DNA from: Thermoplasmata archaeon
GTDB taxonomy: Archaea; Thermoplasmatota; DTKX01; DATEUP01
Direction: 5' to 3'
DNA length: 64,000 nt
Assembly (NCBI GenBank): GCA_041499475.1
Contig: JBGQKI010000001.1
Coordinates: 67,507 to 131,506, forward strand
Positions 33,624-64,000 of this stretch are shown one piece after another. The first letter of the stretch is position 1; the number at the start of each line of letters is the position of its first letter. Below the pieces are notes generated by a model. That model did no database searches. It was not told the DNA's origin and saw only the letters and a list, made by a program, of their open reading frames with translations. The position numbers were made by a program, and so were the translations under genes.

Positions 33624-35498
<1,875 letters not shown>

Positions 35499-39302: not shown

Positions 39303-39362
39303 TGCGACCCGAAGGCCCCCAGTTGCAAGGAGCGCGGGCGCGCTCGCGCCGCCCCGCGCGGC

Positions 39363-45530: not shown

Positions 45531-45573
45531 CTTCTATCTCCTGCGGAGGCGAACGTTGCCTACGCGAACCGGG

Positions 45574-46820: not shown

Positions 46821-46842
46821 CGGTACGCTTCGGGAGCGCGCC

Positions 46843-47784
46843 ATGGCCGGGCTCAAGGTATGGCTGAGGGCCACCCAGGCGCAGTCGTTCGTCGTGTCCG
46901 TGATTCCGGTGCTCGTTGGCGCAGCGGTGGCGGTGTTCCAAGGCGCGCCGCTTTCGCCGCTGCTGCTCCTGTTAACGCTTGCCGGCGTGCTCGCGATCCA
47001 CGCCGCGACGAACATGAGCAACGACTGGGTCGACTACAAGACTGGCGTTGACAACCAGCCGCCGGAGATCATCTCGCCTTTCACGGCGGGCTCGCGCGTG
47101 CTCCCCGACAAGATGCTTACGCCCGACCAGCACAAGCGGGTGTGGCTCGCCCTGTACGCCGTGGGGGCCGCCATCGGCCTATTTTTGGCGCTCACGGTCC
47201 CCGACGGTTGGGTGATCCTCGCGCTGGGGGCATCGATGGGCTTGCTTTCGCTGTTCTACACCTACCCACCGCTGAAGCTGCAGTACCACGGGTTTGGCGA
47301 GGTGCTCGTGGGCGCGATCTTTGGCCCGGTGCTCGTGTTGGGCTCGTATTTCGTTCAGGCGCACCGGCTCGAGGTACAGCCGTTGCTGGTCTCGGTCCCC
47401 TTCGGGATTTTCGTGGCCGCGTTCCTGCTCGTGAACGAGATGCCGGAATGGCAAAGCGACCCCAAGGGCGGCAAGGTGACGGTCCCGGCGCGCGTCGGCC
47501 TCGAGAAGTCGATGAAGATCTACGTGGCGATGATGGTCGCCGGGTACGGTTGGATCGCTGCGGTGGTGGCGCTCGGCTTCTTGCCCTATTTCGTGGCGTT
47601 CGGGTTCGCGTCACTGCCGCTTGGCGCCAAGGGGATCTCGGTGCTTCGCAGGGACTACGCTAGTTTCCCGAAGCACATTCCAGCCAACGCCTCGACGCTC
47701 CTGACCGTGCTTGTGACAGGCCTGGGCTTGCTGATCGGTTATGCACTGGCCGTCCTGCAGATCATCCCGGCGCGCCTCCTATGA
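46843..47784 (+). CDS. UbiA-superfamily prenyltransferase, MenA-like (1,4-dihydroxy-2-naphthoate prenyltransferase family)
   Basis: The ATG at 46843 avoids overlap with the cupin gene. First Asp-rich motif NMSNDWVDYKTGVD. Second motif region NEMPEWQSDPKGGKVTV. About 8-9 TM. Confidence 0.8.
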   Translation: MAGLKVWLRATQAQSFVVSVIPVLVGAAVAVFQGAPLSPLLLLLTLAGVLAIHAATNMSNDWVDYKTGVDNQPPEIISPFTAGSRVLPDKMLTPDQHKRVWLALYAVGAAIGLFLALTVPDGWVILALGASMGLLSLFYTYPPLKLQYHGFGEVLVGAIFGPVLVLGSYFVQAHRLEVQPLLVSVPFGIFVAAFLLVNEMPEWQSDPKGGKVTVPARVGLEKSMKIYVAMMVAGYGWIAAVVALGFLPYFVAFGFASLPLGAKGISVLRRDYASFPKHIPANASTLLTVLVTGLGLLIGYALAVLQIIPARLL

Positions 47785-48717
47785 GGGCGCCCCTGCAAGT
47801 CCAATGAAGCCCAAGGCGGCCATGTAGACTGAAAATCCGTAGTGGAGGAGCACCGTTGTCCGCACACCTCCTTCGACCTTACGCGGGTCGGTGGACCGGA
47901 GTTGCTTGACGACGAATCCCGATGTCAATGCGATCAGAAACGTCGCCAGGAGGTTTGGGTCCATGGGCGACCAGGGCGGATTCCAGGGGAAGCGGGCCGC
48001 CACGAACAACATCAGGAAGACCGCGCCAAGCAGGAGAGCGTCAAGCACCAGACCGGCAGGGCGCGCGCCCATCCGCACGACGGGAGTGCGCTTCCCCTTC
48101 AGCGCGTCCTCGGCGGCGGGCGGAAAATAGCGCGCGAAGGAAATGGCGGCTGCGAAGAACCCAAACAGGGACCCAAGCAGAATGGTATTGGCGTAGAATG
48201 CGGGGTCCTGCGCATAGAACGCGCCAATGAACATGAGGGGCCCAAACGCGAGGAAAGTGGAAACCTCGCCGGCGCCTCGATAGGAGAGCTTGAAGGGCGC
48301 GCCGCTGTACGAGTAGGCGGCGACAAATCCGCCCAGTCCAAGAACGAGCAAAATGAGGTCCATGCGGACAGCGACGACCGCAAGGCCAAGGGCTGCCCCG
48401 AGGCCGAAGGCCCCGATCGTGAGCCGTTTTAGGGCTCGTTCCTCGAGTCCTAGGCGGCGCACGGCGCCGGCGTCGAAGACGAAGGTAGACCGCGGCGTTG
48501 CCGGTGCGGCCGCCAGGTCGCCCGACTCGATAAGCCCCTTCTGGATATTTGCCGCGACTTGAATGGCCAGAACGCTTGCAAGGACCAGCGCCATTACCAA
48601 CGCATCGAGGTGACCGCCGTTGCTTGCGGCCCCGAAGAGCGAGCCGGCGATGACCGGCCCGGCGCTCACCGGCAGCACGGGCACCTGCAGCGCCCGGAAC
48701 CAGTCGCGCGCCGCCAT
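47779..48717 (-). CDS. UbiA/MenA-like membrane protein with degenerate first Asp-rich motif
   Basis: Similar length and TM pattern to its neighbour, with APFKLSYRGAGEVSTFLAFGPLMF (compare PPLKLQYHGFGEVLVGAIFGPVLV). The catalytic motif position reads ANIQKGLIESGD. Confidence 0.7.
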   Translation of the reverse strand: MAARDWFRALQVPVLPVSAGPVIAGSLFGAASNGGHLDALVMALVLASVLAIQVAANIQKGLIESGDLAAAPATPRSTFVFDAGAVRRLGLEERALKRLTIGAFGLGAALGLAVVAVRMDLILLVLGLGGFVAAYSYSGAPFKLSYRGAGEVSTFLAFGPLMFIGAFYAQDPAFYANTILLGSLFGFFAAAISFARYFPPAAEDALKGKRTPVVRMGARPAGLVLDALLLGAVFLMLFVAARFPWNPPWSPMDPNLLATFLIALTSGFVVKQLRSTDPRKVEGGVRTTVLLHYGFSVYMAALGFIGLAGAPS

Positions 48718-48838
48718 CGCGCTCTCACCGGGGCGCCCCGTCTAAAGCCTATCGAGGCCCCCTTGAAGGCTCCGCGAGCCCACCCTTCGAAGGTCGTTTA
48801 TCAAAGAGTAAATACGGAGGTCTGGCATCGCGGGGCTG

Positions 48839-51800
48839 ATGTCGAAAGCAAGGCCGTTGGTGGCGCTTGGACTCCTCGGGCTGATGCTCTCTGCCTTGAC
48901 TCCCGTTGGCGCCGCTCCAGGCCAAGGCGCGCCTGCGCCGACATCGATCGAGCCGCTCTCGTTTTCATTGCCGTTTGTTTACCGCACGATGGAGGGCCTG
49001 CAAACGAACCTCATCAGTCCTTCGCCCACCTACGACCACCTCCACGATGTCGCCTGGGCGCCCGACGGGCACATGGCGCTCGCGGTGGGGAGCCACAACA
49101 CGCTCGTCGCCTTCGACCCGGCCGGCCCCTCCGCGCGCATCTTGCGCAACGGCACGCTTGGAAACCTCTACGGGGTCGCCTGGTCGGACGACTCGCAGAG
49201 CGCCCTTGCCGTAGGGTGGAATGGGGCGCTTGTGACCTATACTTCGCTCGGCGTGCAGGACCTGCCCAGCCAAGGGTTCACCGAGTGGCACGCCGCGGCG
49301 TTCGTCCCTGGCAGCGGGTTCCTTGTCGTTGGGCTCGGCGGCGCGATGTTCTTCCTCAATGGCACGACGCGCACGCCTGTGAGCTCCCCCACGACGAACG
49401 ACCTACTGGGCGTCGCCTACAACCCCGTCCTTGGCCGCGCCCTTGCCGTTGGCCGGGCGGGGACGGCGGTCGAGGTTTCCCCGACGGGCACGGCATCCCT
49501 TGTCGCCTCGCCGGTTGCCGACGACCTTCGCTCCGTGGGCTTCGAGTCGGACACGGGCAAGGGCCTGGTCGCTGGCGGGGCAGGCGTCCTGCTCTCCTAC
49601 CTCGGCGGCGCGCTTGCCAACGAGACGCACAACGCGACCGACGGCGGCTACTACGACATCTCGGTGAGCCGCTCGGGCGAGCCGGCCGTCGTGGCGATCC
49701 GCAACGGCAGCGTGGGCTCCCTCCTCTTCACGAATGCCTCGTACTCCAATTGGCTGACGGGCCGGATTTCTCTCGGCGGCGTGGAAGCCGTCGCGCGCGC
49801 GCCGTCCCAAGGTTACGTGCTCGCCACCGGCTTCTTCGGGGTTTTCGTACTCGCCTACCAAAACGGGACGCTTACGAATTTCTCCAACCCTTACCGCCCG
49901 ACGCTCACCGACGCATCTTGGCGCTCCACAGGCGACTTGGCCCTCCTCGTCGGGTTCAACGGCACGGTCATCCTATTCAACCGGACCTCGAACATGACAA
50001 ACGCGGTTCCGGTGCCGAGCGTGAACGCCAGCTTGCGGGGCGTCTCGTGGGCCGCCAACGGTTCGGAGGCGATCATCGTCGGTGGCTCGACCTTATGGCG
50101 CTACGATGCCGCGTCGGGCAACGTCTCGGAGCCGATCGGCCCCACCGCCTTAGACCTCTACGGCGTGGCCTTCAGGCCGGGCGCCACGGAGGCCGTCGTG
50201 GTGGGCTCCGCCGGGTTCGTCGGCGTGTGGAACGGATCGTCGCTCTTGCGCGTCTCCTCCACCTCGATTACGCAAGGGATCTTCACGGTCCGATGGCACC
50301 TCGACGCCGGCGGCAGCGGCGACTATGCGTACGCGGCGGGCGCCAACATCGCCGCGCGCTTCGACCCGCCGAACGCGGTTTCGACCGTAACCCGCATCGG
50401 GTCCTTCTTCGGCGTCGGGTTCATCGGCGACGACGTGTGGCTCGCCGGCAACGCCCACCAGATCCAGCGGTACGATTCTTCCAACGGGATTTGGGACAAC
50501 CTCTCGCTCCCCTCCGCGCTCTCCACCGTCCGCTTCACGCGCGCAGTCCCGCTGCCCTCCGGGGAAGGCTTGCTCCTCGTGGGCAACCAGTCTTTCAGCG
50601 GGTACCTCAACCTAACCCGTATGCTCCGCTTCGACACGGGGTTCCTTGCAGATTTCAACGGCGTCGAGTTCAACCCGGTGACGCGGGAGCCGCTCTTGTT
50701 CGGGGCATTCAGCCTCGCGTTTGACATGCGCGAGGGCACTTTCCCCAACCTGGCTCCTTTCGTCGTCCTCTCAAGCCCGACCAACGGCACCAACTGGACG
50801 TCCGCCGACACGATCACTTTCGACGCCTCGTCGTCGTACGACCTCGACGGCGACCCGATCACCACCACCTGGTGGGACAACATCACAGGGTACCTCACCG
50901 CCGCGCCCTCGTTTGCGACCCAATTGCCGGCCGGCCTCCACACGGTCACCGTGTTCGTCGACGACGGCCGGGGCCACAACGTCTCCGCTTCGGTGAACCT
51001 CTTCGTGGCGGTTGCCCAGTACGCGCCCGTACCGGTCATCGGCTCGCCGTCCGCCTCGTCGAACTATTCCGATGACGACAACATCACCTTCAGCGGCGCG
51101 ACCTCGTACGACCCCAACCCCACCGACACGCTCTCCTACCGCTGGACGCTCGACGGCTCGGAAGTCCTTGCCAATTCGTCGATCGTGGTGACCAAGCTGC
51201 GCACGGGGACCCACGTGGTGACGCTCAATGTGACCGACCAAACCCGGCTCTCCGCCGAGGCGACCGTCGTCCTCGTCATCCACCAGGGCGACGCGCCGCC
51301 CTTCCCGACCGTGGTGTCGCCCCAGGAGTCCGGGAGCTACGCCTCCAACATCCCCATCCTCTTCGACTCTACAGGCACCTTCGACAACGACTCCGCTTGG
51401 CTCACCTATGTTTGGCTTGTGGACGGCGCCGAGATCGGCCGGCTCCCCATCATGAACGCGACGCAACCTGCCGGAGCGCATACCGTGACCCTGCAAGTGA
51501 GCGACGGGGCCAAGACCTCGCAGATCGTCGTAAACATCCAGGTCGGCGGCCCCGTCGACCTGCCGCCGAAGTTCCTCTCCATCAACCCGCCGAACGGGAC
51601 CGTCCTTGTCGGTACCGTGGTTTTCAACGGCACCGTCGAGGCCGACCCTCAGGGGCCGGTGCGCTTCATCCGGTTCAGCATCAATGGCGGAAACCTCGAG
51701 ACCGCGGCCGGGTCCTCGTCGTCCTGGTCGGCGACCGTTGACACCACGCTGCTGCCCAACGGCACCATCATCGTCACGTTTCAAGCGATTGACAACGCCC

Positions 51801-52240
51801 ACGCCACGTTTGAAACTCGGTCGTACATCGTCGCCAACCCGTTTGTCGATGTGGTGCCCACCGTCGACTTCCTCACGCCTTCGTCCGGGTCGTACCTGCG
51901 CGGGACTGTGACGCTCGCGGGGTCGGTCAGCGACCCCGACACGCCGGTCGCCACGGTCGAGTACCGCATTGGCCAAGGGCCGTGGACGGCGGCGACGATC
52001 CAGGGGACTACCTGGACCGCGACGCTCGACACCGCCGGGCTCCCCGACGGCCCGGTGATCATCGAGCTGCGCGCCTTCGACGGCTACAACTACAGCAGTT
52101 CCTCGTTCGTAACGGTGAATGTCGACAATGGCGTGGTCGCCGAAGCGGGCCTGCCGCTCGAAACGCTCGCCCTTGCGGTCTTGGCCCTCGCGGCCGTCGC
52201 GGGAATTGCGTTCGTCCTGCTGAAGCGCAGGCGCGCCTAA
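48839..52240 (+). CDS. giant (1133 aa) surface protein: signal peptide, beta-propeller-like repeats, three PKD-like domains, Ig-like domains, C-terminal TM anchor
   Basis: Signal peptide MSKARPLVALGLLGLMLSALTPVGAAPG. Repeats of the type LYGVAWSDDSQSALAVGWNGALV. PKD-like DASSSYDLDGDPITTTWW, SYDPNPTDTLSYRWTLDG and FDNDSAWLTYVWLVDG. C-terminus LALAVLALAAVAGIAFVLLKRRRA. Confidence 0.85.
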   Translation: MSKARPLVALGLLGLMLSALTPVGAAPGQGAPAPTSIEPLSFSLPFVYRTMEGLQTNLISPSPTYDHLHDVAWAPDGHMALAVGSHNTLVAFDPAGPSARILRNGTLGNLYGVAWSDDSQSALAVGWNGALVTYTSLGVQDLPSQGFTEWHAAAFVPGSGFLVVGLGGAMFFLNGTTRTPVSSPTTNDLLGVAYNPVLGRALAVGRAGTAVEVSPTGTASLVASPVADDLRSVGFESDTGKGLVAGGAGVLLSYLGGALANETHNATDGGYYDISVSRSGEPAVVAIRNGSVGSLLFTNASYSNWLTGRISLGGVEAVARAPSQGYVLATGFFGVFVLAYQNGTLTNFSNPYRPTLTDASWRSTGDLALLVGFNGTVILFNRTSNMTNAVPVPSVNASLRGVSWAANGSEAIIVGGSTLWRYDAASGNVSEPIGPTALDLYGVAFRPGATEAVVVGSAGFVGVWNGSSLLRVSSTSITQGIFTVRWHLDAGGSGDYAYAAGANIAARFDPPNAVSTVTRIGSFFGVGFIGDDVWLAGNAHQIQRYDSSNGIWDNLSLPSALSTVRFTRAVPLPSGEGLLLVGNQSFSGYLNLTRMLRFDTGFLADFNGVEFNPVTREPLLFGAFSLAFDMREGTFPNLAPFVVLSSPTNGTNWTSADTITFDASSSYDLDGDPITTTWWDNITGYLTAAPSFATQLPAGLHTVTVFVDDGRGHNVSASVNLFVAVAQYAPVPVIGSPSASSNYSDDDNITFSGATSYDPNPTDTLSYRWTLDGSEVLANSSIVVTKLRTGTHVVTLNVTDQTRLSAEATVVLVIHQGDAPPFPTVVSPQESGSYASNIPILFDSTGTFDNDSAWLTYVWLVDGAEIGRLPIMNATQPAGAHTVTLQVSDGAKTSQIVVNIQVGGPVDLPPKFLSINPPNGTVLVGTVVFNGTVEADPQGPVRFIRFSINGGNLETAAGSSSSWSATVDTTLLPNGTIIVTFQAIDNAHATFETRSYIVANPFVDVVPTVDFLTPSSGSYLRGTVTLAGSVSDPDTPVATVEYRIGQGPWTAATIQGTTWTATLDTAGLPDGPVIIELRAFDGYNYSSSSFVTVNVDNGVVAEAGLPLETLALAVLALAAVAGIAFVLLKRRRA

Positions 52241-54207: not shown

Positions 54208-54460
54208 GTCCCCCGAGGAAACGGAACTGGAGTGGCGACGAGCAGCCCCACCGGAAGGCGCGCTGGCTAGCCTTTCAGTTGAAGGGTCGCCTTTTCCCCT
54301 CTGTGAATCCACGCTTTTGTTCACTCCTCGTGTACGCATCGCGAGGGTCTATTATAACGCCTCACCCCAATGGGTTCTTCATGAACGTCCGCACCGTGCG
54401 AGACGCAGTGGAAGAACCTGAGATTCCGGCCGGGGATAGCCGCCGGCTGGAGGAGGGGCA

Positions 54461-54613
54461 ATGGCTTCTTTGACCGAAGGCCTCGAAAGCGTGCCGTGGC
54501 ACATCGTGATCCGCCCCGACTCGCGCCTGTGGTCGTTCCGCCTCTCGGCAGGGATGAGCGTGAGCACCTTCATGCGGACGCTCGCCCCGCCGGAGCCCCG
54601 GCCGCAGGATTGA
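54461..54613 (+). CDS. small ORF (50 aa) of unknown function with strong SD and downstream hairpin
   Basis: GGAGGAGGGGCA-ATG. MASLTEGLESVPWHIVIRPDSRLWSFRLSAGMSVSTFMRTLAPPEPRPQD. 44 of 50 codons end in G/C. It is too short for the ORF track. Confidence 0.45.
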   Translation: MASLTEGLESVPWHIVIRPDSRLWSFRLSAGMSVSTFMRTLAPPEPRPQD

Positions 54614-54621
54614 GCCGCTTC

Positions 54622-54667
54622 CCGACCGCGCGCCCCTCCGATCAAGCGCGGTCGGCTTTCTCCTTTC
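54622..54667 (+). terminator. 10-bp perfect hairpin followed by pyrimidine/T-rich tract
   Basis: CCGACCGCGC-(14 nt)-GCGCGGTCGG, then CTTTCTCCTTTC. It begins 9 nt after the small-ORF stop. Confidence 0.5.
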
Positions 54668-54721
54668 AAGAAAACTTCAAGTGGCCTGCGGCAAGTCCCT
54701 TTCCGAAAGGAAGGGCTTGCG

Positions 54722-55861
54722 ATCGACTTCGACCTCACCGACGAGCAACAGATGGTGCGCAAGGTCGCGCGGGACTTCGCCGAGACGCGTGTCAAGCCGA
54801 TTGCGGCGGAGATCGACCGGACCGCCAGGTGGCCCGCCGAGACCGTGGAAGGCCTGGCGGAGCTCGGGCTGCTTGGGATGATGGTGCCCGCGCAGTGGGG
54901 GGGCGCGGGCGCCGACTACGTGTCGTATGTGGGGGTCGTCGAGGAGCTGTCACGCGTTTGCGCTTCGACCGGGGTGATCCTCTCGGTCAACAACTCGCTC
55001 TTCGCATACCCCGTGTCGTCCTTCGGGACGCCTGAGCAGAAGGAAAAATACCTGCGCCCGATCGGAGAAGGCAAGAAACTCGGCTCCTACGCGCTATCGG
55101 AGCCCGCCGCCGGTTCCGACCCGGGGGCGCTCAAGGCTACCGCCAGGCCCGACGGCGAGTTCTACATCCTCAACGGCACGAAGCACTTCATCACGAACGG
55201 GCCCGCCTCGGACTTCTGCGTCGTCTATGCCAACGAAGACCTCTCGAAGGGGCACCGCGGAATCTCAGCGTTCATCCTCGAAAAGGGGATGAAGGGCTTT
55301 GATGTGGGCTCCGAGGAAGAAAAGCTAGGGATCCGCGCCTCCGGTTCCTGCGAAATGGTGTTCCACGACTGCGCGGTGCCTAAGGCGAACCGGCTGGGCC
55401 CCTCCGGGGAGGGGTTCAAGATCGCGCTGAAAACGCTCGACGCCGGCCGCATCGGGATCGCGGCGCAGGCGACGGGAATCGCGCAAGGGTCTCTGGACGC
55501 GGCCTGCGAATACGCGAAGAACCGCACGCAATTTGGCCAGAAGATCGGCAACTTCCAGGCGATCCAGTGGAAGCTTGCGGACATGGCGGTCGGCATCGAG
55601 GCCGCACGGCTGCTCACGCAGCGTGCGGCCTGGCTGAAGGACCGGGGCGAGCCGCACAGCTTAGAGGCCTCGGTCGCCAAGCTCTTCGCGTCGAACGTGG
55701 CGATGCAGGCCTCGACCGACGCCGTGCAGGTCTTCGGCGGAGTCGGCTACACGAAGGACTACCCCGTCGAGCGGTTCTATAGGGACGCGAAAATCACGGA
55801 GATCTACGAAGGCACGAGCGAGGTGCAGCACATCGTGATCTCGCGCGCGGTGCTGAAGTGA
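54722..55861 (+). CDS. acyl-CoA dehydrogenase (short/butyryl-chain type)
   Basis: The full ACAD pattern is present (PIAAEIDRTARWP, YALSEPAAGSD, GSCEMVFHDCAVP, QFGQKIGNFQAIQWKLADM, YEGTSEVQ). The conserved N-terminus IDFDLTDEQQ lies in frame upstream of the first ATG (54752). The start is provisionally set at the ATC at 54722, which is preceded by AGGAAGGG; 54752 is the fallback. Confidence 0.9.
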   Translation: MDFDLTDEQQMVRKVARDFAETRVKPIAAEIDRTARWPAETVEGLAELGLLGMMVPAQWGGAGADYVSYVGVVEELSRVCASTGVILSVNNSLFAYPVSSFGTPEQKEKYLRPIGEGKKLGSYALSEPAAGSDPGALKATARPDGEFYILNGTKHFITNGPASDFCVVYANEDLSKGHRGISAFILEKGMKGFDVGSEEEKLGIRASGSCEMVFHDCAVPKANRLGPSGEGFKIALKTLDAGRIGIAAQATGIAQGSLDAACEYAKNRTQFGQKIGNFQAIQWKLADMAVGIEAARLLTQRAAWLKDRGEPHSLEASVAKLFASNVAMQASTDAVQVFGGVGYTKDYPVERFYRDAKITEIYEGTSEVQHIVISRAVLK

Positions 55862-55946
55862 GCCGCTTTCGCTCTACCCCCCCACACCCTATACTACACG
55901 CGCGAGAATAGGGTGGGCGGGCGGGACGAAAAACGGAGGGGCGAGC

Positions 55947-56378
55947 GTGGAACACCACCGCGAAGGCGACCTGATCCTGGTGCGGCTCGACCGCGGCGAG
56001 GACCTGATCGGGAGCCTGCTTTCGGCGCTCAAGGCGAGCGGCGCACGGGGAGCCGCGGTGATGACCGGGCTTGGCGCCGTCGAGGATGTCGAGTTCGCAT
56101 ACTATGACCCCAAGGCGCGAACCTACGACCGAAAAGTCCTCGAGGTCTCCCACGAAATCCTCGGGCTCTCGGGCATTGTGGCAAGCGCCCCCGACGGCTC
56201 CTACCAGCCGCACTTCCACATCACGCTGGGGGGCCCCGACCACCGGGCCTATGGGGGCCACCTCTTCCGCGCACGCATCGCCGTGCTTGCGGAATTCGCC
56301 CTGCGGGTCGTCGACAACCCGAAGATGAGGCGCGAAAAGGAGCCGCAGTTCGGGCTGAACGCGCTGCGGCTCAATTGA
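55947..56378 (+). CDS. PPC / DUF296 domain protein
   Basis: LILVRLDRGEDLIGSLLSALKASGARGAAVMTGLGAVEDVEFAYYD...HFHITLGGPDHRAYGGHL matches the PPC fold signature. GTG start. Confidence 0.75.
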   Translation: MEHHREGDLILVRLDRGEDLIGSLLSALKASGARGAAVMTGLGAVEDVEFAYYDPKARTYDRKVLEVSHEILGLSGIVASAPDGSYQPHFHITLGGPDHRAYGGHLFRARIAVLAEFALRVVDNPKMRREKEPQFGLNALRLN

Positions 56379-56614
56379 GCCGTCCGGAGTGGGACGCGCC
56401 CGCTTAGCGTTGAAATTGCGTCTGCCGCAGGAAAGCAGCGTGAATTCCGCGCCGCACGCAATGGGCGGGCAGCTGCTCCGCCTGAAACACGTGATCGTGC
56501 GTTTCGTCCGCCCTTGGAGCGGCTGGGGAGTGTCGCCAGCATGTTCAATTCGCAACCCCGGTTGCGCGCGGCGAGGGACGGGCCACGATCCTCCTGCTTG
56601 CCGCCTTCGCCCTG

Positions 56615-58573
56615 ATGCTCGGGGGGGGCTGCTTGGCCTTGACCCTTCAGCGCGACTCCAAGCGCGCGAGCGCCGCGGGCGCCCTTGGCGTGGTGGTCGG
56701 AGGCTCGTTGGGGCTCGTCGATGTTGCCCTCCGTTTCCTTTCGGGCACCGAGGACTCCCTGCGGTTCGAGTGGGGTTTCCCGGGCAACACCTTCTACCTC
56801 GAAGTCGACGCCCTTTCCGCCTTCTTCCTGGTGGTCATCTTTGCGGTGGCGATCGCAAGCGCCGTCTTCGGCGCGCCCTACCTTCGCGGCCACGCCCCCA
56901 ACCGCCCGCTTGGCGCCGTGTGGTTCCACTACAGCGCCCTCGTCGTCTCGATGGCGCTCGTCGTCGTCGCCCGCAACGGGCTCCTCTTCCTGATCGGGTG
57001 GGAATCCATGGCGCTGACCTCGTTCTTCCTCGTCATGTTCGACGGACGGGAAGCGCGCGTTCGCCGGGCCGGCTGGACTTACTTCGTCGCCTCTCACTTC
57101 GGGACCGGCTGCGTCCTCGCCTTTTTCGCGGTGCTTGGTGCCCACGCCGGCTCTCTCGACTTCGACCGGATCGCGGCCGCTCCGCCGCTCACCCCCGCGA
57201 CCTCATCGCTCCTGTTTCTCCTTGCCATCGCGGGGTTCGGCACGAAAGCGGGATTCATTCCGCTCCATGTGTGGCTCCCCGAGGCGCACCCGGCCGCTCC
57301 GGCCCATGTCTCCGCCCTGATGTCGGGCGCGATGATCAAACTTGGAATCTACGGGATCCTGCGCGCGCTCACCTTCCTTGGGGCCGCCCCTGCCTGGTGG
57401 GGGTGGCTGCTCGTTGCCGTCGGGGCGACCTCGGGCGTGCTCGGCGTCCTCTTCGCGCTGGCGCAGCACGACCTCAAGCGATTGCTTGCCTACCACAGCG
57501 TGGAGAACATCGGCATCATCGCCCTGGGCCTCGGGGTGGGGCTGCTCGGGACAACGGCAGGCGATCCCGCGGTCGCGTTCCTCGGGTTCTCCGGCGCGCT
57601 CCTCCACGTCCTCAACCACGCGCTCTTCAAGTCCCTGCTCTTCCTCGGCGCCGGGGCCGTGTCCACCGCCGCCCATGCGCTCGACCTCGAGCACCTCGGC
57701 GGGCTCCTGCGGCGGATGCCGCGCACCGGCGCCTCGTTCTTGGTGGGTTCGGCCGCCATCAGCGGCCTGCCGCCCCTCAACGGCTTTGCAAGCGAGTTCC
57801 TGATTTTCGCCGGGGCGCTTGCCGGGGCCACCACGCTTGGGCCAACCTTTGCCATTCCGCTTGCGGCGTGCGCCGGCGCGCTCGCGCTCATCGGCGGCCT
57901 TGCGGCCGCCTGCTTTGTGAAGGCGTGCGGGGTGGCTTTCCTCGGCGAGCCGAGGACTCCGAACGCGCGGGACGCGCGGGAGGTTGCGCCCCTGATGGCC
58001 GCCCCCCAGGTCGCGCTTGCCGCCCTTTGCGTCGCCCTCGGCGTCGGCGCCCCCCTTGTGGTCCCGCTCCTTTTGCCGGCCGCCGCGCCGGTACTTGGCA
58101 CCACGCTTGCCGGTGCGTCGCAAGCCGCCGGTTTCGCATCGGGCGCGCTGGCATCGATCTCGGTCGCCTTCGCCCTGGTCGTTGGCCTGGCGCTCGCCCT
58201 CATCGTGCTCCGCCGTGGACTTGGAAGGGGGGCCCCCATCCGGACGGGTCCCACTTGGGACTGCGGGTTTGCGGCGCCTTCACCGCGGATGCAGTACACC
58301 GCCTCGTCGTTTGCCGCCCCGCTCACAGGGTACTTCCGGAGTTTGCTGCGCACGCGCGCCGAAGTTGCAGCCCCTTCGGGGCCGTTCCCCGGCCGCGCAT
58401 CACTCGAAACCGAGAGCCCCGACTTCTTCCTTGAAGGCGTGTTCGAGACCGCCATCCTTGGAGCTCGACGCGCGCTCTCGGGGGTGCTGCGCCTCCAAAA
58501 CGGGCGGGTCCAGTTCTACGTCCTCTACCTCGTGGCCACTTTGATCGGGCTGCTAATCTGGAGGCTGATTTGA
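56615..58573 (+). CDS. HyfB/NuoL-like proton-conducting antiporter-type membrane subunit
   Basis: About 15 TM, with GWESMALTSFFLV, FGTKAGFIPLHVWLPEAHPAAPAHVSALMSGAMIKLGIYG and LAYHSVENIGII. The true start is probably upstream (see findings). Confidence 0.88.
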   Translation: MLGGGCLALTLQRDSKRASAAGALGVVVGGSLGLVDVALRFLSGTEDSLRFEWGFPGNTFYLEVDALSAFFLVVIFAVAIASAVFGAPYLRGHAPNRPLGAVWFHYSALVVSMALVVVARNGLLFLIGWESMALTSFFLVMFDGREARVRRAGWTYFVASHFGTGCVLAFFAVLGAHAGSLDFDRIAAAPPLTPATSSLLFLLAIAGFGTKAGFIPLHVWLPEAHPAAPAHVSALMSGAMIKLGIYGILRALTFLGAAPAWWGWLLVAVGATSGVLGVLFALAQHDLKRLLAYHSVENIGIIALGLGVGLLGTTAGDPAVAFLGFSGALLHVLNHALFKSLLFLGAGAVSTAAHALDLEHLGGLLRRMPRTGASFLVGSAAISGLPPLNGFASEFLIFAGALAGATTLGPTFAIPLAACAGALALIGGLAAACFVKACGVAFLGEPRTPNARDAREVAPLMAAPQVALAALCVALGVGAPLVVPLLLPAAAPVLGTTLAGASQAAGFASGALASISVAFALVVGLALALIVLRRGLGRGAPIRTGPTWDCGFAAPSPRMQYTASSFAAPLTGYFRSLLRTRAEVAAPSGPFPGRASLETESPDFFLEGVFETAILGARRALSGVLRLQNGRVQFYVLYLVATLIGLLIWRLI

Positions 58574-58575
58574 GC

Positions 58576-59487
58576 ATGGAGCCCGCCTCCCTGCTGCAGG
58601 CCGGCCTTGCCGCCTCGCTGTCTCCCCTCTTGCTTGGCATCATCAACCGCGTCAAGTCCGTCGTTGCCGGCCGCACCGGGCCACCGCTCGTCCAGCCCTA
58701 CCGCGACCTTGCAAAACTCATGCGAAAGGGCTCGGTGTACAGCGAAACCACCACATGGGTTTTCCGCACGGGCCCCGCCTTTGGGCTCGCCGCGCTCTTC
58801 GGGGCCGTGCTGCTCCTGCCGCTTGGCCCCTCGGCCGCTCCCCTTGGCTTTGCAGGTGACCTGTTCCTGCTTGCCGGCCTCTTCTCGCTCCAGCGATTTT
58901 GCCTCATGCTCTGCGCGCTCGACACCGGATCGAGCTTTGAAGGGATGGGCGCAAGCCGCGAGGCTTTTTTTGCGGCGATCGGCGAGCCGGCGCTCCTCAT
59001 CGGCCTGCTCGTGGCGGCGCGCGGCGCCCTCAGCCTCTCGCTTACCGGGCTGCTCGGGGCGACCACCCTTGCAACCGCGGTGGCTGCCGGCCCCGCCCTG
59101 CTGCTCGTTGCCGTTGCGCTCTTCCTCCTCCTGCTCGCCGAGAACGCGCGCATCCCCGTAGATGACCCGAGCACGCACCTCGAGCTCACGATGATCCACG
59201 AGGTCATGGTGCTCGACAACAGCGGCGTTGACCTCGCGTACATCACGTACGCCTCCGCCCTGAAGCTGTGGGTCTTTGGGGCGCTCGTCGTCGGCCTCCT
59301 GCTGCCGACCGGCGGCCTGCCCATCGAGGCCGTCGTGCCGCTGTTTGTGCTCTCGATGGTCGGGCTTGCCGTCGCCGTGGGCGTCGTGGAATCCACGATG
59401 GCGAGGGTGCGCCTCTCGCGCGTGCCTCGTCTGCTGGTCGGCGCCGGCGGCCTCACCGCGCTCGCGCTCCTGCTCTCTGTATTCTAG
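58576..59487 (+). CDS. HyfC/HycD (NuoH-like) membrane subunit
   Basis: LLLGIINRVKSVVAGRTGPPLVQPYRDLAKLMRKGSV is the HycD/NuoH N-terminal signature. ENARIPVDDPSTHLELTMIHEVMVLD. ATG at 58576 (TTG at 58570 is an alternative), overlapping or abutting the previous stop. Confidence 0.88.
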   Translation: MEPASLLQAGLAASLSPLLLGIINRVKSVVAGRTGPPLVQPYRDLAKLMRKGSVYSETTTWVFRTGPAFGLAALFGAVLLLPLGPSAAPLGFAGDLFLLAGLFSLQRFCLMLCALDTGSSFEGMGASREAFFAAIGEPALLIGLLVAARGALSLSLTGLLGATTLATAVAAGPALLLVAVALFLLLLAENARIPVDDPSTHLELTMIHEVMVLDNSGVDLAYITYASALKLWVFGALVVGLLLPTGGLPIEAVVPLFVLSMVGLAVAVGVVESTMARVRLSRVPRLLVGAGGLTALALLLSVF

Positions 59488-59490
59488 GAG

Positions 59491-60141
59491 GTGCCTCGCT
59501 TGTCCTCGCTTGCCGACTCGGTGCTCGTCCTCGTCGTGCTTTCCAACTTGGCAATGCTCGGCACCAACAACCTTGGCAACTCGATCCGGCTGCTTGCGCT
59601 GCAGGGGTTCGCGATCGGCGCGCTCGTACTCCTGCTCGCCCCCGAGGCCGACCTGCGCACGCTCCTGCTCGCCGCCGGGGTGGCCGGCCTCAAGGGGCTC
59701 GTTTACCCGTGGGCGCTCGTGCGCGTGTTGCGCAAGGTGAAGGTCGTAAGCGAGGACGAGCCCCTGGTGGGCTACTCGGTCACCTTCATCACGGGGATCC
59801 TCGCCCTTGCGGTCGCCTTCATCGTGGCCCCGCGCCTCGCGCCGGTGGGGCCCGCGCCGCCCCCGCTTGCACTCGCCGTCGCGCTTTCCACGATGATCGC
59901 CGGACTCACCCTCACGATCACGCGCCGCACCGCGCTTGCCCAGGTCCTTGGATATGTAGTCCTTGAGAACGGGATCTTCCTCTTCGCGCTCACCCTCGTC
60001 GGCGGCCTACCGCTGCTGCTCGAGCTCGGCGGCCTGCTTGAGGTATTCTTTGCGGTGTTCGTGATGGGCATCGCGGTCGACCGCATCAGCCGGGAGTTTT
60101 CGACGATCGACGTCGACGCGCTCGACCGGCTCCGGGGGTGA
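59491..60141 (+). CDS. HyfE-like membrane subunit
   Basis: 216 aa and about 7 TM, with AQVLGYVVLENGIFLFAL typical of HyfE. AGGAGG precedes the gene; TTG 59500 is an alternative start. Confidence 0.8.
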   Translation: MPRLSSLADSVLVLVVLSNLAMLGTNNLGNSIRLLALQGFAIGALVLLLAPEADLRTLLLAAGVAGLKGLVYPWALVRVLRKVKVVSEDEPLVGYSVTFITGILALAVAFIVAPRLAPVGPAPPPLALAVALSTMIAGLTLTITRRTALAQVLGYVVLENGIFLFALTLVGGLPLLLELGGLLEVFFAVFVMGIAVDRISREFSTIDVDALDRLRG

Positions 60142-60145
60142 AGCG

Positions 60146-61627
60146 ATGGACGGCTCCTTGGAGTTCCTCCTGCTGCTCGGGTTGCCCCTCCTTGGGGCAA
60201 GCGTATCGCTTACGCTCGGCCATCCGCGCAGCGTGCTGGCCTGGAGCGGCGCTTGGGTCGGCGCCTGGGCGCTCGTCGCCTTCGAGGCCGCCTCCAGGGT
60301 TTTCGCCGGGGAGGCGCTCGACGGCGCTTCCGGATGGCTCATGCTCGACGCGCTTTCCGCCTACCACATCTGCGTGATGGCAGTCGTGTTTGTCCTTGCC
60401 ACGGCGTTTGCGTATTTTTACTTCGGGCGCGAGGTCGACGAGGGCAAGCTTTCGCCCCGCATCGCCCGCCGCTTTGGGATGCTCTGGGCCGGCGCCCTGT
60501 TTGCCATGACGCTCGTCCTTTCGTCCAACAACCTCGGCATCATGTGGGTCGGCGTCGAGTTCACCACCCTTTCGACCGCGTTCCTGATCCGCCTCCACGT
60601 TACGCACGAGTCGCTCGAAGCCACGTGGAAGTACCTCGTGATCTGCTCCGTCGGCGTCGCGCTCGCCTTCCTCGGAGTCGTGTTCATTGCGGCCTCGGCC
60701 CGCGCCGTGCTCCCCAACGGCGAGGAGGCGACGATGTGGACGAGCCTCCTGGCGGTTTCCGCCAAGCTCGACCCAGGCCTTGCAAAGGCCGGCTTCTTGT
60801 TTGTCCTTGTCGGCTTCGGTACGAAGGCCGGGCTTGCGCCCATGCACACCTGGCTCCCCGACGCGCACAGCCAGGCGCCGGGTCCTGTGTCGGCGGTGTT
60901 CTCCGGCTCGCTGCTCAACGCGGCGCTCTACTGCATCCTGCGCTACGTGCCTATCGTCGAAGGGGCGACCGGCCGCTCGGGTTTTGCGCTCTCGCTGCTC
61001 ATCGTGTTCGGACTGGGCTCCCTGCTGCTTGCGGCCGCGTTCATGGTTTTCCAGCGGGACATCAAGCGCCTGCTTGCGTATTCGAGCGTCGAGCACATCG
61101 GGATCATCACGCTCGGAATCGGGCTCGGGCCCCTCGGGGCCTTTGCGGCCCTCTTCCACGTGTTGAACCACTCCGTGTCGAAGTCGGTCGCGTTCTTGGC
61201 GGCCGGCCGGCTGAGCGAGGCCTACGGCGGAAGCGAGATCGCGCGCCTGCGCGGGGCCGCGCGCGCTCAACCGCTCTGGGGAGGCGCGCTCGTCGCGAGC
61301 TTGCTTTCGCTTGTCGGGGCCGCCCCCTTTGCCGTGTTCCTCAGCGAGTTCTTGGTGCTGCAGGCCGCGGCCGCGGCAGGCGCCTGGGCGGTGGTCGGCC
61401 TCCTTGTCCTCGGCCTGGGTATCGTGTTCGCAGGCGTCCTCGTGCACCTCGTGGCCATCGGCTGGGGCGAGCCGACCTCGCCGAGCCAAATCACCCGCGC
61501 GGGGCCCTTCGAGGCCGCCACGGTCGTGGTGCCGCTTACCGCCCTTCTAGTCCTCGGCCTTTTCATGCCGGGGGCCCTGCGCGACGCGCTCGAACAGGCG
61601 GTCCGTGTCGTGGGAGGCGGACTCTGA
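60146..61627 (+). CDS. HyfF/HycC (NuoM/N-like) antiporter-type membrane subunit
   Basis: GFGTKAGLAPMHTWLPDAHSQAPGPVSAVFSGSLLNAALY, LAYSSVEHIGIITLGIG; 493 aa. Its stop overlaps the next start (TGATG). Confidence 0.88.
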   Translation: MDGSLEFLLLLGLPLLGASVSLTLGHPRSVLAWSGAWVGAWALVAFEAASRVFAGEALDGASGWLMLDALSAYHICVMAVVFVLATAFAYFYFGREVDEGKLSPRIARRFGMLWAGALFAMTLVLSSNNLGIMWVGVEFTTLSTAFLIRLHVTHESLEATWKYLVICSVGVALAFLGVVFIAASARAVLPNGEEATMWTSLLAVSAKLDPGLAKAGFLFVLVGFGTKAGLAPMHTWLPDAHSQAPGPVSAVFSGSLLNAALYCILRYVPIVEGATGRSGFALSLLIVFGLGSLLLAAAFMVFQRDIKRLLAYSSVEHIGIITLGIGLGPLGAFAALFHVLNHSVSKSVAFLAAGRLSEAYGGSEIARLRGAARAQPLWGGALVASLLSLVGAAPFAVFLSEFLVLQAAAAAGAWAVVGLLVLGLGIVFAGVLVHLVAIGWGEPTSPSQITRAGPFEAATVVVPLTALLVLGLFMPGALRDALEQAVRVVGGGL

Positions 61628-63114
61628 TGTCTTCACAGACAGCGGTTCTTCGTTCCGCATTGCCGCTCGGCAACGGCCAGGCCGCGAGCGTCTCGGAGGT
61701 CCCGACCCTCGACTTCGGCTCGTTCCGGGCGCTCATCGAGTCGGCGGTCGAGGCCGGCGGCCGTGTTGCAGCGCTCTACGCCTCGGCGGGGCAGGGCGGC
61801 GGGCCGATGCTGACCGTGGTGCTCGCGCTCGGCGCCGAAGGGGTGCTTGGCGTTGCCTCGACGCCGGTGGGCGCCACTTTCCCTTCGATGACCGTGGAAA
61901 TCCCGCAGCTGCACCTCTTCGAGCGCGAGATCTACGAGGGAGGCCTCACCGCGCCCGTCGGCCACCCGTGGCTGAAACCCGTCCGGCTCTTGGCGGGCGG
62001 CGGGAAGGCCCCGTTCTACAAAGTCGAGGGGAAGGAAGTCCACGAGGTGGCGGTCGGCCCTGTCCACGCCGGCGTGATCGAGCCGGGCCACTTCCGCTTC
62101 CAGGCCCACGGCGAAGAGGTCCTCCACCTCGAGATTGCCCTCGGCTACCAGCACCGGGGGGTCGAGCGCGCGATGGTGGGCGGCCCCCATGCGCGCAGCG
62201 CGCTCCTTGCCGAAACGCTCGCGGGCGATTCGAGCGTCGCGCACGCGACCGCCTACGCGCGGGCCGTGGAGGCGCTTGCCCACGCCACCAACTCGCCGCG
62301 CGCCCGCGTGCTTCGCGGAGTTGCCCTCGAACTCGAGCGGATGGCCAACCACACGGGCGACCTCGGGGCCCTTGCCGGTGACATCGGCTTCCTTCCGACG
62401 GCCGCGTTCTGTGGACGGGTGCGCGGCGACTTCCTGAACCTCACCTTGGCGCTCACTGGCAGCCGGATGGGCCATGCGTTCGTGGTCCCGGGCGGGGTGC
62501 GCGCCGACGCCGACGCGCCGCTCGTGGAGGCGCTGCGGGCGGGCACGAAGCGGGCGCTTGGCGATGCCCGGCAGGGCGCCGACCTCCTCTGGAGCACCGC
62601 CTCCGTGCGCGGCCGACTTGGCGGGACGGGCACCCTCAGCCGCGAGACCTGCGAGGAGATGGGCATCGTCGGGGTCGCCGCCCGCGCCTCCGGCCTGCCC
62701 CGCGATGTGCGGCGCGAGTTCCCCTGGGGGGTGTTCCTCGACCGCGCGATCGAAGCCCGCCTCTGGCCCACTGGCGACGTGTACGCCCGCGCGCGGGTGC
62801 GCTGGATGGAGGTCGAGCAGTCGGCCGGTTGGGTCGATGGCCTGCTTGCCAAGCTCCCGGAAGGCGTCCTTGAGCACCCGAGGGGACCCCTTGCCCCCGA
62901 TTCCCTTGCGGTCTCGCTCGTCGAGGGTTGGCGCGGCGAGATTTGCCATGTCGCGCGGACGGGCAGGGACGGGCGGTTCGTCGACTACAAAGTCGTTGAC
63001 CCGTCCTTCCACAATTGGACGGGCCTTGCGCTCGCGATGCGCGGTGCGGCGATCTCCGACTTCCCGCTCATCAACAAGAGTTTCAACCTCTCCTATGCGG
63101 GCCACGACCTCTGA
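61627..63114 (+). CDS. HycE/HyfG-like (NuoC+NuoD fused) large subunit lacking all four NiFe-ligand cysteines
   Basis: GPVHAGVIEPGHFRF, LGYQHRGVE and LELERMANH are conserved. The L1 position reads ETLAGDSSVAH (HycE DRVCGICGFAH). The C-terminus reads SFNLSYAGHDL-stop (HycE SLDPCYSCTDR...). The ATG at 61627 was chosen; the upstream part of the 953-aa track ORF was rejected. Confidence 0.88.
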   Translation: MSSQTAVLRSALPLGNGQAASVSEVPTLDFGSFRALIESAVEAGGRVAALYASAGQGGGPMLTVVLALGAEGVLGVASTPVGATFPSMTVEIPQLHLFEREIYEGGLTAPVGHPWLKPVRLLAGGGKAPFYKVEGKEVHEVAVGPVHAGVIEPGHFRFQAHGEEVLHLEIALGYQHRGVERAMVGGPHARSALLAETLAGDSSVAHATAYARAVEALAHATNSPRARVLRGVALELERMANHTGDLGALAGDIGFLPTAAFCGRVRGDFLNLTLALTGSRMGHAFVVPGGVRADADAPLVEALRAGTKRALGDARQGADLLWSTASVRGRLGGTGTLSRETCEEMGIVGVAARASGLPRDVRREFPWGVFLDRAIEARLWPTGDVYARARVRWMEVEQSAGWVDGLLAKLPEGVLEHPRGPLAPDSLAVSLVEGWRGEICHVARTGRDGRFVDYKVVDPSFHNWTGLALAMRGAAISDFPLINKSFNLSYAGHDL

Positions 63115-63123
63115 GGGAAACCC

Positions 63124-63924
63124 ATGATCCGAATCATCGAGGCGCGGCGCCACCAGGGCCACAAAACCACGCCGTTCCCGTACGGCAACCCCGGTCTGCC
63201 CGGCCGGTTCCGGGGCCTGCCGGTCATCCAACCGGGGAAGGTCACGCAAGGGTGCAGCGCTTGCGTCGAGGCCTGCCCCACCGGCGCGCTCACGATGGAG
63301 GCCGGCGCGCTTTCGCTTGACCTAGGCAAGTGCATTTTCTGCGGTGACTGCGCGCGCGCCTGCCGCTCGGGCGCGGTGACCTTGAGCAATGGGTTCCGCC
63401 TCTCGTCGCGCAGCCGCGAGGGGCTCACCTTGAAGGACTCGGAGGTCCCGCGCGTGGAGGCGCTCGACCGGAAGGCCCGCCGCCTCTTCGGGCGCTCGCT
63501 GCGCCTGCGCCAAGTGAGCGCCGGGGGGTGCAACGGCTGTGAAGTGGAACTCGCGGCGCTGCAAAACGTCGTCTTCGACTTCCAGCGGTTCGGGATCCAG
63601 TTCGTCGCTTCGCCGCGCCACGCCGACGGCCTGCTGGTGACCGGCCCCGTAACACGCAACATGGAGCTCGCCCTGCGCAAGACCTACGCCGCCGTCCCCG
63701 AGCCCAAGATCGTCATTGCCGCGGGGGCCTGCGCAATCTCCGGCGGGCCGTTTGCCCTCAACCCCGAAGTGATGGGGGGCGCGGCCGCTGTCGTCCCGGT
63801 CGACCTCTACATCGCTGGCTGCCCGCCCCACCCGATAACGCTGCTCGATGGGCTCCTGCGGCTCCTCGGGCGCATCGAAGGTGGGGATGCGCGCGGCGAA
63901 GGCCCTGCGCCGCCCTCGCCCTAG
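63124..63924 (+). CDS. fusion of ferredoxin-like (HycF/NuoI-type) domain and HycG/NuoB-like small subunit
   Basis: N-terminal CSACVEACP and CIFCGDCARAC. The C-terminal NuoB-like part has GGCNGCEVE, SPRHADGLLVTGPVT, GACAISGG and AGCPPHP. GAGGGAAA SD upstream. Confidence 0.88.
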   Translation: MIRIIEARRHQGHKTTPFPYGNPGLPGRFRGLPVIQPGKVTQGCSACVEACPTGALTMEAGALSLDLGKCIFCGDCARACRSGAVTLSNGFRLSSRSREGLTLKDSEVPRVEALDRKARRLFGRSLRLRQVSAGGCNGCEVELAALQNVVFDFQRFGIQFVASPRHADGLLVTGPVTRNMELALRKTYAAVPEPKIVIAAGACAISGGPFALNPEVMGGAAAVVPVDLYIAGCPPHPITLLDGLLRLLGRIEGGDARGEGPAPPSP

Positions 63925-64000
63925 AACTCGAGCGGCGCTGCGTACTCGCGGAACGACTTGAGGATGACGATGACCTCCTCGTCCTTCAGGCGCAGCCTGG
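63921..64000 (-). CDS. 3' end of an unidentified minus-strand CDS running off the window
   Basis: The reverse strand reads ...RLRLKDEEVIVILKSFREYAAPLEF-TAG. It is open to the window edge with high GC3, but too short to identify. Confidence 0.3.
   Translation of the reverse strand, partial: RLRLKDEEVIVILKSFREYAAPLEF

Follow-up and report, generated by a model that had tools for sequence, protein, structure and literature searches.

The 64-kb window analysed here, i.e. the whole stretch of DNA from positions 67,507 to 131,506 of contig JBGQKI010000001.1 (GenBank assembly GCA_041499475.1) of a Thermoplasmata archaeon, ends with six consecutive, tightly packed genes on the + strand (56615–63924). 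They encode a membrane complex of the energy-converting hydrogenase-related (Ehr) kind, which comprises two antiporter-type membrane subunits (EhrA and EhrD), a subunit joining the peripheral and membrane parts (EhrB), a small membrane subunit (EhrC), a large subunit (EhrL) and a small subunit with iron-sulfur clusters (EhrS). Gene families were called with Pfam and NCBIfam profile searches, and the matches of all six genes (Table 1) bear out the original prediction of a Hyf/Hyc-like membrane complex; as detailed below, we are nearly certain that this complex is no [NiFe] hydrogenase and that it belongs to Ehr. EhrA starts at ATG 56615, which is the first start codon in its frame and is likewise annotated as the start on public contigs of identical sequence, so that the initially proposed position 56588 is slightly early. 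EhrB and EhrC have alternative starts (TTG at 58570 and GTG at 59491, respectively). As predicted, the EhrD stop and the EhrL start overlap in TGATG (61625–61629); the remaining gaps, initially given as 3–9 nt, span 2–12 nt, varying with the choice of start. The internal starts are preceded by GGAGG-like Shine-Dalgarno motifs, which were read directly from the DNA.

EhrL aligns with HycE of E. coli (Protein Data Bank (PDB) chain 7z0s_E, 6.8e-39), and in a residue alignment with HycE and P. furiosus MbhL (6cfw_L) all four NiFe-ligating cysteines are replaced (C->A, C->S, C->S and C->G). Thus, 'RVCGICGFAH' and 'DPCYSC' of HycE correspond to 'TLAGDSSVAH' and 'NLSYAG' of EhrL. The same four cysteines are missing in 120 of the 120 closest EhrL homologs, which agrees with the earlier claim of a catalytic subunit devoid of NiFe ligands; moreover, no canonical NiFe large subunit is present in the operon, so that the hydrogenase alternative considered in the original prediction fails. 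The C-terminus of EhrL (...GHDL) coincides with the end of mature HycE, implying that there is no C-terminal extension for a maturation protease. As was also predicted, Pfam scans of ~45 other open reading frames (ORFs) of the window did not detect any gene for formate dehydrogenase, nor any hyp or hycI gene.

The complex is not an ordinary complex I either. The quinone ligands by which complex I can be recognized, Tyr87 and His38 of NuoD (T. thermophilus numbering), are not found in EhrL, and the sole residue of the complex I quinone site that is kept is Asp139 of T. thermophilus Nqo4, the partner of the quinone-site His, which corresponds to the invariant Asp252. No Ehr structure was found in a copy of the PDB reaching to April 2026, and EhrL was modeled with AlphaFold2 (predicted local distance difference test (pLDDT) 91, predicted template modelling score 0.92); a Foldseek search with the model returned HycE as the best match (TM-score 0.89), followed by E. 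coli NuoCD (0.82). The pLDDT falls below 50 only at residues 146–153 (the VHAGVIEP loop) and 491–495 (AGHDL). Both are the motifs with the highest conservation, one being the invariant loop at the active site and the other lying at the C-terminus, and to fold they presumably depend on partner subunits. The mean column identity of the Ehr family is unusually high (67–68%), and the invariant residues of EhrL gather at the former active site (H147, E152, H155, Q159, G200, D201 and D252) and at the C-terminus (N483-K484-S485-F486, S489-Y490, G492 and D494). The cysteines follow a different course: bacterial EhrL proteins have a median of 10, of which ~8 are conserved, whereas the archaeal ones have 2–3. 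Six cysteines conserved in bacteria are replaced in the window protein, and C440 is the sole family-conserved cysteine of archaeal EhrL.

EhrS is a fusion, in which a HycF/NuoI-like 2x[4Fe-4S] ferredoxin domain (residues 1–100) with seven of the eight cysteines precedes a HycG/NuoB-like domain (1.7e-34 to HycG, 7z0s_G; 4.9e-13 to HycF, 7z0s_F). The proximal cluster of the NuoB-like domain is intact, its ligands C136xxC139, C203 and C233 being conserved in 93–96% of 72 sequences. In bacterial EhrS all eight ferredoxin-type cysteines are conserved, whereas in the window protein the first one is replaced by V40; the second ferredoxin motif is intact. The cluster affected is that bound by Cys I–III of the first motif and Cys IV of the second: three of its four ligands are kept in the window, but just one of the four in relatives at 80% and 73% identity (L001 8818–9600 and L087 10300–11079; L numbers denote public loci). 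The second ferredoxin-type cluster, like the NuoB cluster, retains all of its ligands across the archaeal Ehr clade. Judging from these ligand patterns, the archaeal clade is losing the ligands of one ferredoxin-type cluster stepwise. By comparison with Nqo9, the eroding cluster may correspond to the distal N6a.

The closest solved chains of the membrane subunits are HycC for EhrA (7z0s_C, 3.5e-70), HycD for EhrB (7z0s_D, 4.3e-29) and MbsH (6u8y_H, 7e-34) and MbhH (6cfw_H) for EhrD; for EhrC, a sequence search found no solved homolog. Conservation was counted at a threshold of at least 90% over 56–71 sequences. EhrA retains E130, K211, H218, H331, H335, K339 and E394 (56 sequences) and EhrD retains E138, K227, H234, K346 and E401, i.e. 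the Glu of transmembrane helix (TM) 5, the Lys of TM7, the His/Lys of TM8 and the Glu of TM12 are kept in both antiporter-like subunits, and EhrC has the NuoK-like E159 and E178. In EhrB, ~20 charged residues are conserved, many of them acidic, and the loop AENARIPVDDPSTHLELTMIHE is nearly invariant among 67 sequences; it is unlike its HycD counterpart and longer than it by three residues. With these charged pathway residues in place, the ion-translocation apparatus is intact.

In the literature, Ehr denotes relatives of the group 4 hydrogenases in which the NiFe ligands are missing. Ehr was named in 2005 and, as a class, in 2013 (Marreiros et al. 2013), and HydDB leaves it out of the hydrogenases since it does not metabolise H2; publications of 2023–2025 still describe its function as unknown. 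The window locus has every feature by which Ehr can be recognized from sequence, namely, a large subunit without CxxC...CxxC, a NuoB-type subunit with four cysteines and an A-B-C-D-L-S operon. GTDB species genomes were scanned with the peptide patterns IEPGHFRF and [SA]LGYQHRG[VI], which yielded at least 600 stretches. Ehr turned out to be widespread, as at least 599 of these stretches, each from a GTDB species representative, encode a relative. The 80 loci compared here are the best 80 of these (EhrL identity to the window of 47–58%), and all of them are bacterial, with hosts in Planctomycetota, Verrucomicrobiota, Geobacterales/Desulfuromonadales, Acidobacteriota, Spirochaetota, Elusimicrobiota, Riflebacteria, Chlamydiota, Gemmatimonadota and Alphaproteobacteria. 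The order EhrA(-A)-B-C-D-L-S is found in essentially all of the 80 that are long enough for judgement, with a tandem EhrA pair in about one-third. Five Geobacterales loci (L015, L026, L029, L046 and L076) have seven genes, A-A-B-C-D-L-S, in agreement with the Ehr cluster published for Geobacter (GSU0739-45), and an EhrL 50–54% identical to that of the window. This shared gene set and order, together with papers up to 2025, supports the assignment to the Ehr type with unknown function made in the original prediction. Among the literature searched, this is apparently the first Ehr noted in Thermoplasmatota.

A second, paralogous six-gene cluster lies beside the Ehr operon in one Geobacteraceae genome (L046 13362–20566) and one Verrucomicrobia genome (L038 2538–9953). 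Its large subunit is 36–38% identical to the window EhrL and keeps the pocket motifs VGPVHAGIIEPGHF, SGD(S/T)(S/T)VAH and NKSFNxSYSGxD. Since the NiFe cysteines are absent here as well, these clusters were ruled out as a true-hydrogenase reference. In L046, the paralogous small subunit (~170 aa) is devoid of a ferredoxin domain, and its Cys55, Cys58 and Cys152 match those of the published HyqI. Azorhizobium Hyq, described in 2009–2012, therefore appears to be a sister subfamily on sequence grounds, whereas the window complex belongs to the ferredoxin-domain (Ehr) subfamily.

In a neighbour-joining tree computed without support values, the archaeal Ehr clade, comprising the window and relatives at 70–80% identity, is a derived branch within the bacterial radiation, next to intermediates at 59–65% identity. 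This nested position suggests that archaeal Ehr was acquired from bacteria. The ratio of nonsynonymous to synonymous substitution rates (dN/dS) is 0.14–0.19 for the six genes, which are thus under purifying selection; the NuoB domain alone gives 0.08–0.12, and the ferredoxin domain ~0.29. Given these values, we count Ehr as functional in the archaeon. The archaeal origin of the window, which had escaped the original prediction, is apparent from its gene content, which includes ribosomal proteins P1, L1 and L11, Spt5, FtsZ, SepF, the PolD small subunit, RadA, a protein with an archaeal pilin N-terminus and glycerol-1-phosphate dehydrogenase (e.g. in regions 7569–10809, 12454–13671, 19473–22745, 29009–30397, 37797–39362 and 44586–45533). 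RadA is 93% identical to a protein of 'Candidatus Thermoplasmatota archaeon', and the guanine + cytosine content of the window is ~67%.

Two public contigs with an identical EhrS, L084 (GCA_041481855.1) and L085, provide the context downstream of the window. There, an oppositely oriented AsnC-type gene of 154 aa has a 4-nt overlap with the EhrS stop, and beyond it come a hypothetical gene and topoisomerase VI A/B; the same convergent arrangement is found in L001–L003 and L087. The convergent AsnC regulator closes the 3′ end and the operon is thus complete. No further Nuo/Hyc-type subunits adjoin the operon on L084/L085, and hence the complex I or Fpo subunits which the original prediction considered might be encoded just beyond the window are not there.

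Table 1. The ehr operon and its immediate neighbours in the window
Gene	Position	Strand	Description	Profile match
EhrA	56615–58573	+	652 aa; HyfB/HycC/NuoL-like antiporter-type membrane subunit	NF005086 (hydrogenase-4 subunit B) 2.4e-188; PF00361 (Proton_antipo_M)
EhrB	58576–59487	+	303 aa; HycD/NuoH-like, joins peripheral and membrane parts	PF00146 4e-27
EhrC	59500–60141	+	213 aa; HyfE-like small membrane subunit, NuoK-like C-terminal half	NF008556 (hydrogenase-4 membrane subunit) 1.4e-26; weak PF00420
EhrD	60146–61627	+	493 aa; HyfF/NuoN-M-like antiporter-type subunit	NF005044 (hydrogenase-4 subunit F) 3e-119
EhrL	61627–63114	+	495 aa; N-terminal NuoC-like domain + Complex1_49kDa; NuoC-NuoD/HycE-like	PF00346
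EhrS	63124–63924	+	266 aa; fusion of Fer4 (HycF/NuoI-like) and Oxidored_q6 (HycG/NuoB-like)	PF01058
PCC/DUF296 protein	55947–56378	+	Upstream neighbour	PF03479 5.9e-25
Acyl-CoA dehydrogenase	54752–55861	+	Butyryl-CoA/acryloyl-CoA type	Pfam ACAD domains; NF042972 1.3e-141, below its cut-off
AsnC/Lrp-type regulator	63921–64000	−	3′ end; convergent, remainder beyond the window	

Upstream, Pfam matches confirm the predicted acyl-CoA dehydrogenase and PCC protein on the same strand, but the suggestion that they may hint at the electron source is not supported. The acyl-CoA dehydrogenase is absent beside ehr in the 73%-identical archaeal relative (L087) and in 80 of the 80 bacterial loci; not being a conserved neighbour, it was rejected as an electron source. 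The PCC protein is found upstream of ehr in L001, L002, L084 and L087, often in two copies. Its conservation is confined to the archaeal Ehr clade, as the bacterial loci do not have it, and it has no known redox function. Its relatives in the PDB, where we found no informative annotation, are 'hypothetical / putative DNA-binding' proteins, and the literature found covers only plant AHL proteins; the PCC protein is possibly regulatory. The conserved neighbours of the archaeal clade are thus the PCC protein and the convergent AsnC regulator. Among the bacterial loci, 20 of 80 have a co-oriented HTH_17 + PTS_EIIA_2 protein (~235 aa) directly upstream of ehr (e.g. L008 4284–4994, L012 4197–4907 and L022 4241–4951), which is likely a dedicated regulator linked to signalling of the nitrogen-related phosphotransferase system (PTS(Ntr)) type. 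It is the only recurrent neighbour in the flanks of the 80 loci: no recurrent electron-donor partner was found there, i.e. no formate dehydrogenase, NuoEFG, hyp or ferredoxin genes. In the window, TATTATAA at 54350–54357 is the only AT-rich TATA-like box within 54340–56620. It is placed between a divergent methyltransferase gene and EhrA, and both the acyl-CoA dehydrogenase gene and an ORF of 50 aa lie downstream of it. As the sole such box, it might serve as a common promoter, and the acyl-CoA dehydrogenase, PCC and ehr genes may form one transcript.

Several other features of the window were recorded. Besides the canonical Spt5 gene (10165–10809), there is an ORF combining Spt5-NGN with a DUF63 membrane domain (30160–31884, +); its start is uncertain and it overlaps the adjoining gene, so that the two domains may have been joined artificially when ORFs were called. 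Four large predicted surface proteins of 1090–1933 aa (812–6613, −; 13909–18555, +; 19473–22745, −; 48812–52240, +) contain beta-helix/NosD, CarboxypepD_reg/Big_1, archaeal pilin N-terminal and PKD/Big_7 domains. This archaeal genome also has a GrpE-DnaK-DnaJ chaperone operon (32923–36767, +), a set generally held to be of bacterial origin. Rfam and tRNA scans found a single tRNA-Gly and nothing else.

What reaction might the complex carry out? The lack of a dehydrogenase module, combined with a ferredoxin-like domain at the surface, a cluster wire, an intact coupling subunit and two antiporter-like pumps, points to an ion-translocating oxidoreductase of the Ech/MBH/NDH-1 type that depends on ferredoxin and has an acceptor other than the proton. 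Our tentative reading, to which we give somewhat less than even credence, is electron transfer from ferredoxin to menaquinone, or the reverse, coupled to ion translocation; within it, donor, acceptor and direction are what we infer. Electrons would enter the ferredoxin-like domain of EhrS from a soluble carrier of low potential, which is most likely ferredoxin, and would pass from there to the NuoB-type [4Fe-4S] cluster and on to an acceptor in the remodelled, Cys-free pocket of EhrL, EhrS and EhrB. The wire, which has three clusters in the family, perhaps has two here. The acceptor would most likely be a membrane naphthoquinone in a menaquinone-making host, and the redox reaction, reversible in principle, would drive translocation of H+ or Na+ via EhrB/EhrC and the antiporter-like EhrA and EhrD. 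Two convergent, slightly overlapping UbiA-family genes (46708–47784, +; 47779–48741, −) lie ~8 kb upstream, and the best NCBIfam matches of both are all MenA, below the curated cut-offs. MenA is 1,4-dihydroxy-2-naphthoate polyprenyltransferase. The two MenA-like genes suggest that the host makes a menaquinone-type quinone, and we judge a naphthoquinone to be the most plausible acceptor in this host. Cyanobacterial NDH-1, in which electrons travel from ferredoxin through N6a, N6b and N2 to quinone on the same scaffold, provides a precedent; the invariant Asp252, the counterpart of Nqo4 Asp139, also speaks for a quinone.

A number of observations weigh against this proposal. The quinone-ligating Tyr87 of T. 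thermophilus Nqo4 aligns with the invariant Gly200 of EhrL, the β1–β2 loop of EhrL (HAGVIEPGHFRF) is of the hydrogenase and not of the complex I type, and the proximal-cluster motif of EhrS, GGCNGCE, contains CxxC as in HycG/MbhJ and not the tandem CC of NuoB. The erosion of one ferredoxin-type cluster in the archaeal clade implies that a long input wire is dispensable, and the sister subfamily Hyq has no ferredoxin domain at all. In Riflemargulisbacteria Ehr has been reported, but no full quinone pathway has been found, and the literature searched contained no biochemical assay of any Ehr.

Some of these points would also be expected if the acceptor at the EhrL pocket were not a quinone but a small molecule, for instance sulfane sulfur as in MBS, or a soluble oxidant. 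The pocket motifs VGPVHAGIIEPGHFRFQ, AGD(S/T)(S/T) and NKSFNLSYxGHDL are invariant across two subfamilies sharing 36–38% identity, which suggests a specific site unlike those of both NiFe hydrogenases and complex I; in addition, Tyr87 is absent, Ehr is reported in apparently quinone-less lineages and MBS is among the closest solved relatives of EhrD. However, the 13 subunits of MBS include Mrp-type extras missing here, the gene neighbourhood indicates no candidate substrate, and a niche-specific acceptor is disfavoured by the occurrence of the family in aerobes and anaerobes alike. On balance, we consider a non-quinone acceptor unlikely. Somewhat less likely still, in our view, is that the complex runs in reverse as its regular mode, the ion gradient driving electrons from quinol up to ferredoxin to give a low-potential reductant. 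In Azorhizobium, hyq is controlled by NifA and its deletion slows diazotrophic growth only; Ehr occurs in about half of Nitrospirales, which are nitrite-oxidising chemolithoautotrophs with a high-potential electron donor; and the regulator with HTH and PTS-EIIA(Ntr-type) domains upstream in 20 of 80 loci would fit as well. The host of the window complex, by contrast, looks like an archaeal heterotroph, there are no nif or carbon-fixation genes nearby in the window, and the sequence gives no reading of direction. Archaeal heterotrophs usually produce reduced ferredoxin and do not require it. A more general and similarly doubtful version would make both Ehr and Hyq gradient-driven quinol:ferredoxin oxidoreductases feeding nitrogenase, the reductive tricarboxylic acid cycle or 2-oxoacid synthases. 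If so, the 'endo-hydrogenase' phenotypes of Azorhizobium would reflect the supply of reductant to nitrogenase, the conserved Cys-free Asp/His/Glu/Asn/Lys/Tyr pocket would represent a coupling site of a third type, beside NiFe and the complex I quinone site, and the archaeal clade would be a natural minimal version, in which only the medial and N2-type clusters are required.

The complex could alternatively be an Mrp-like cation/proton transporter, whose iron-sulfur module either has persisted as a structural relic or gates transport as a redox sensor. The antiporter modules are the best-conserved membrane parts, there is no ferredoxin domain in the Hyq-type small subunits, and one cluster has only one to three of its four ligands left in the archaeal clade. 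PTS-Ntr-type regulators are, moreover, classically linked to ion homeostasis. Yet conservation is highest of all in the N2-type ligands, in the pocket of EhrL and in the coupling loop of EhrB, and the low dN/dS of the NuoB domain is hard to square with a relic, making this possibility highly doubtful. A cryptic hydrogenase, equivalent to the H2:quinone oxidoreductase ('endo-hydrogenase') that Azorhizobium Hyq has been claimed to be, has in its favour an identical gene layout and the H2 phenotypes, both genetic and physiological, reported for hyq mutants. We nevertheless give it hardly any weight, because there are no NiFe ligands, archaeal EhrL has so few cysteines, with C440 alone conserved in the family, and the window lacks hyp and hycI; furthermore, HydDB excludes Ehr, Nitrospira Ehr is not induced by H2 and the authors of the Hyq studies themselves term the catalytic site speculative. 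That every subunit is a Nuo homolog might finally be read as a fragment of ordinary complex I or Fpo with the other subunits encoded elsewhere. This is the least credible reading of all, given that the operon is closed by the convergent regulator, the six-gene set is conserved whole in at least 80 genomes, the best matches are to Hyf/Hyc and not to Nuo, and CxxC, the missing Tyr87, the NuoI-NuoB fusion and the HyfE-type subunit are all foreign to complex I.

Electron exchange between ferredoxin and menaquinone coupled to ion translocation thus remains our preferred reading, and the archaeal copy narrows the question of Ehr function without solving it. Ehr stands evolutionarily between membrane hydrogenases and complex I and, 20 years after its naming, has no known substrate; its hosts include Geobacter, Nitrospira, Planctomycetota, Verrucomicrobiota, ammonia-oxidising archaea and the M. 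tuberculosis complex. A functional archaeal EhrL without nearly all of the conserved cysteines disfavours a hidden Cys-ligated metal or cofactor as well as a redox disulfide. Furthermore, the erosion of the input cluster here and its absence in Hyq point to a conserved core of N2-type cluster, pocket and membrane arm. The apparent transfer from bacteria to archaea would have involved a whole respiratory module. Whereas the Ehr kind was already known, the Thermoplasmatota host with its Ehr nested among bacterial ones, the loss of cysteines from EhrL, the erosion of cluster ligands in EhrS and the finding that the PCC protein, but not the acyl-CoA dehydrogenase, is a conserved neighbour, in the archaeal clade only, are new.

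Among the named systems, the window complex can be compared with the 'hyc' cluster Rv0081-Rv0087 of Mycobacterium tuberculosis, in which the small subunit is presumably encoded first. The literature regards that cluster as EHR-type and as a very improbable hydrogenase, and the likeness is taken from that description. The hyqRBCEFGI cluster of Azorhizobium caulinodans has six structural genes (B, C, E, F, G and I) in the same order as the window and, likewise, a NuoC::D large subunit without canonical NiFe ligands, but the Hyq-type small subunit measures ~170–180 aa and has no ferredoxin domain, whereas EhrS (266 aa) has Fer4. Complex I, NDH-1 and Fpo have the architecture of Q-module and P-module in common with the window complex, and the three-cluster ferredoxin-N6a-N6b-N2 wire of cyanobacterial NDH-1 resembles that of Ehr. 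Compared with complex I, however, there is no equivalent of Tyr87, the NuoB-type subunit has CxxC instead of CC, and the subunits number six and not at least 11, without separate NuoA/J. E. coli Hyc (7z0s) provides the closest solved homologs of EhrA, EhrB, EhrL and EhrS, and Hyc/Hyf share with the window the Hyf-type membrane arm (HyfB/C/E/F), the CxxC motif and the β1–β2 loop; unlike them, the window complex has no NiFe cysteines, processing extension, HycB/FdhF partner or HyfA/D/H/J, and the counterparts of HycF and HycG are fused. The MBH and MBS complexes of Pyrococcus (6cfw and 6u8y) are ferredoxin-dependent ion-translocating relatives, with MbsH/MbhH nearest to EhrD, and MBS is an example of the scaffold serving a reaction other than that of H2. 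They have 13–14 subunits with Mrp modules, and MBH retains the NiFe site; the window complex has no NiFe site, and no Mrp small subunits (MrpE/F/G type) were found with the six ehr genes. The closest counterpart is Ehr of Geobacter sulfurreducens (GSU0739-0745), whose cluster was described as encoding NuoL-like, HyfE-like, large and small subunits, of which EhrA-1, EhrC, EhrL and EhrS were named. It has the same subunit set, order and fused ferredoxin-NuoB protein as the window, which differs from it in having one EhrA instead of two, an archaeal host, an EhrL devoid of six bacterial-conserved cysteines and an EhrS devoid of the first cysteine of the ferredoxin domain, and differs from bacterial Ehr in being accompanied by the PCC protein and the AsnC regulator in place of the HTH-EIIA regulator.

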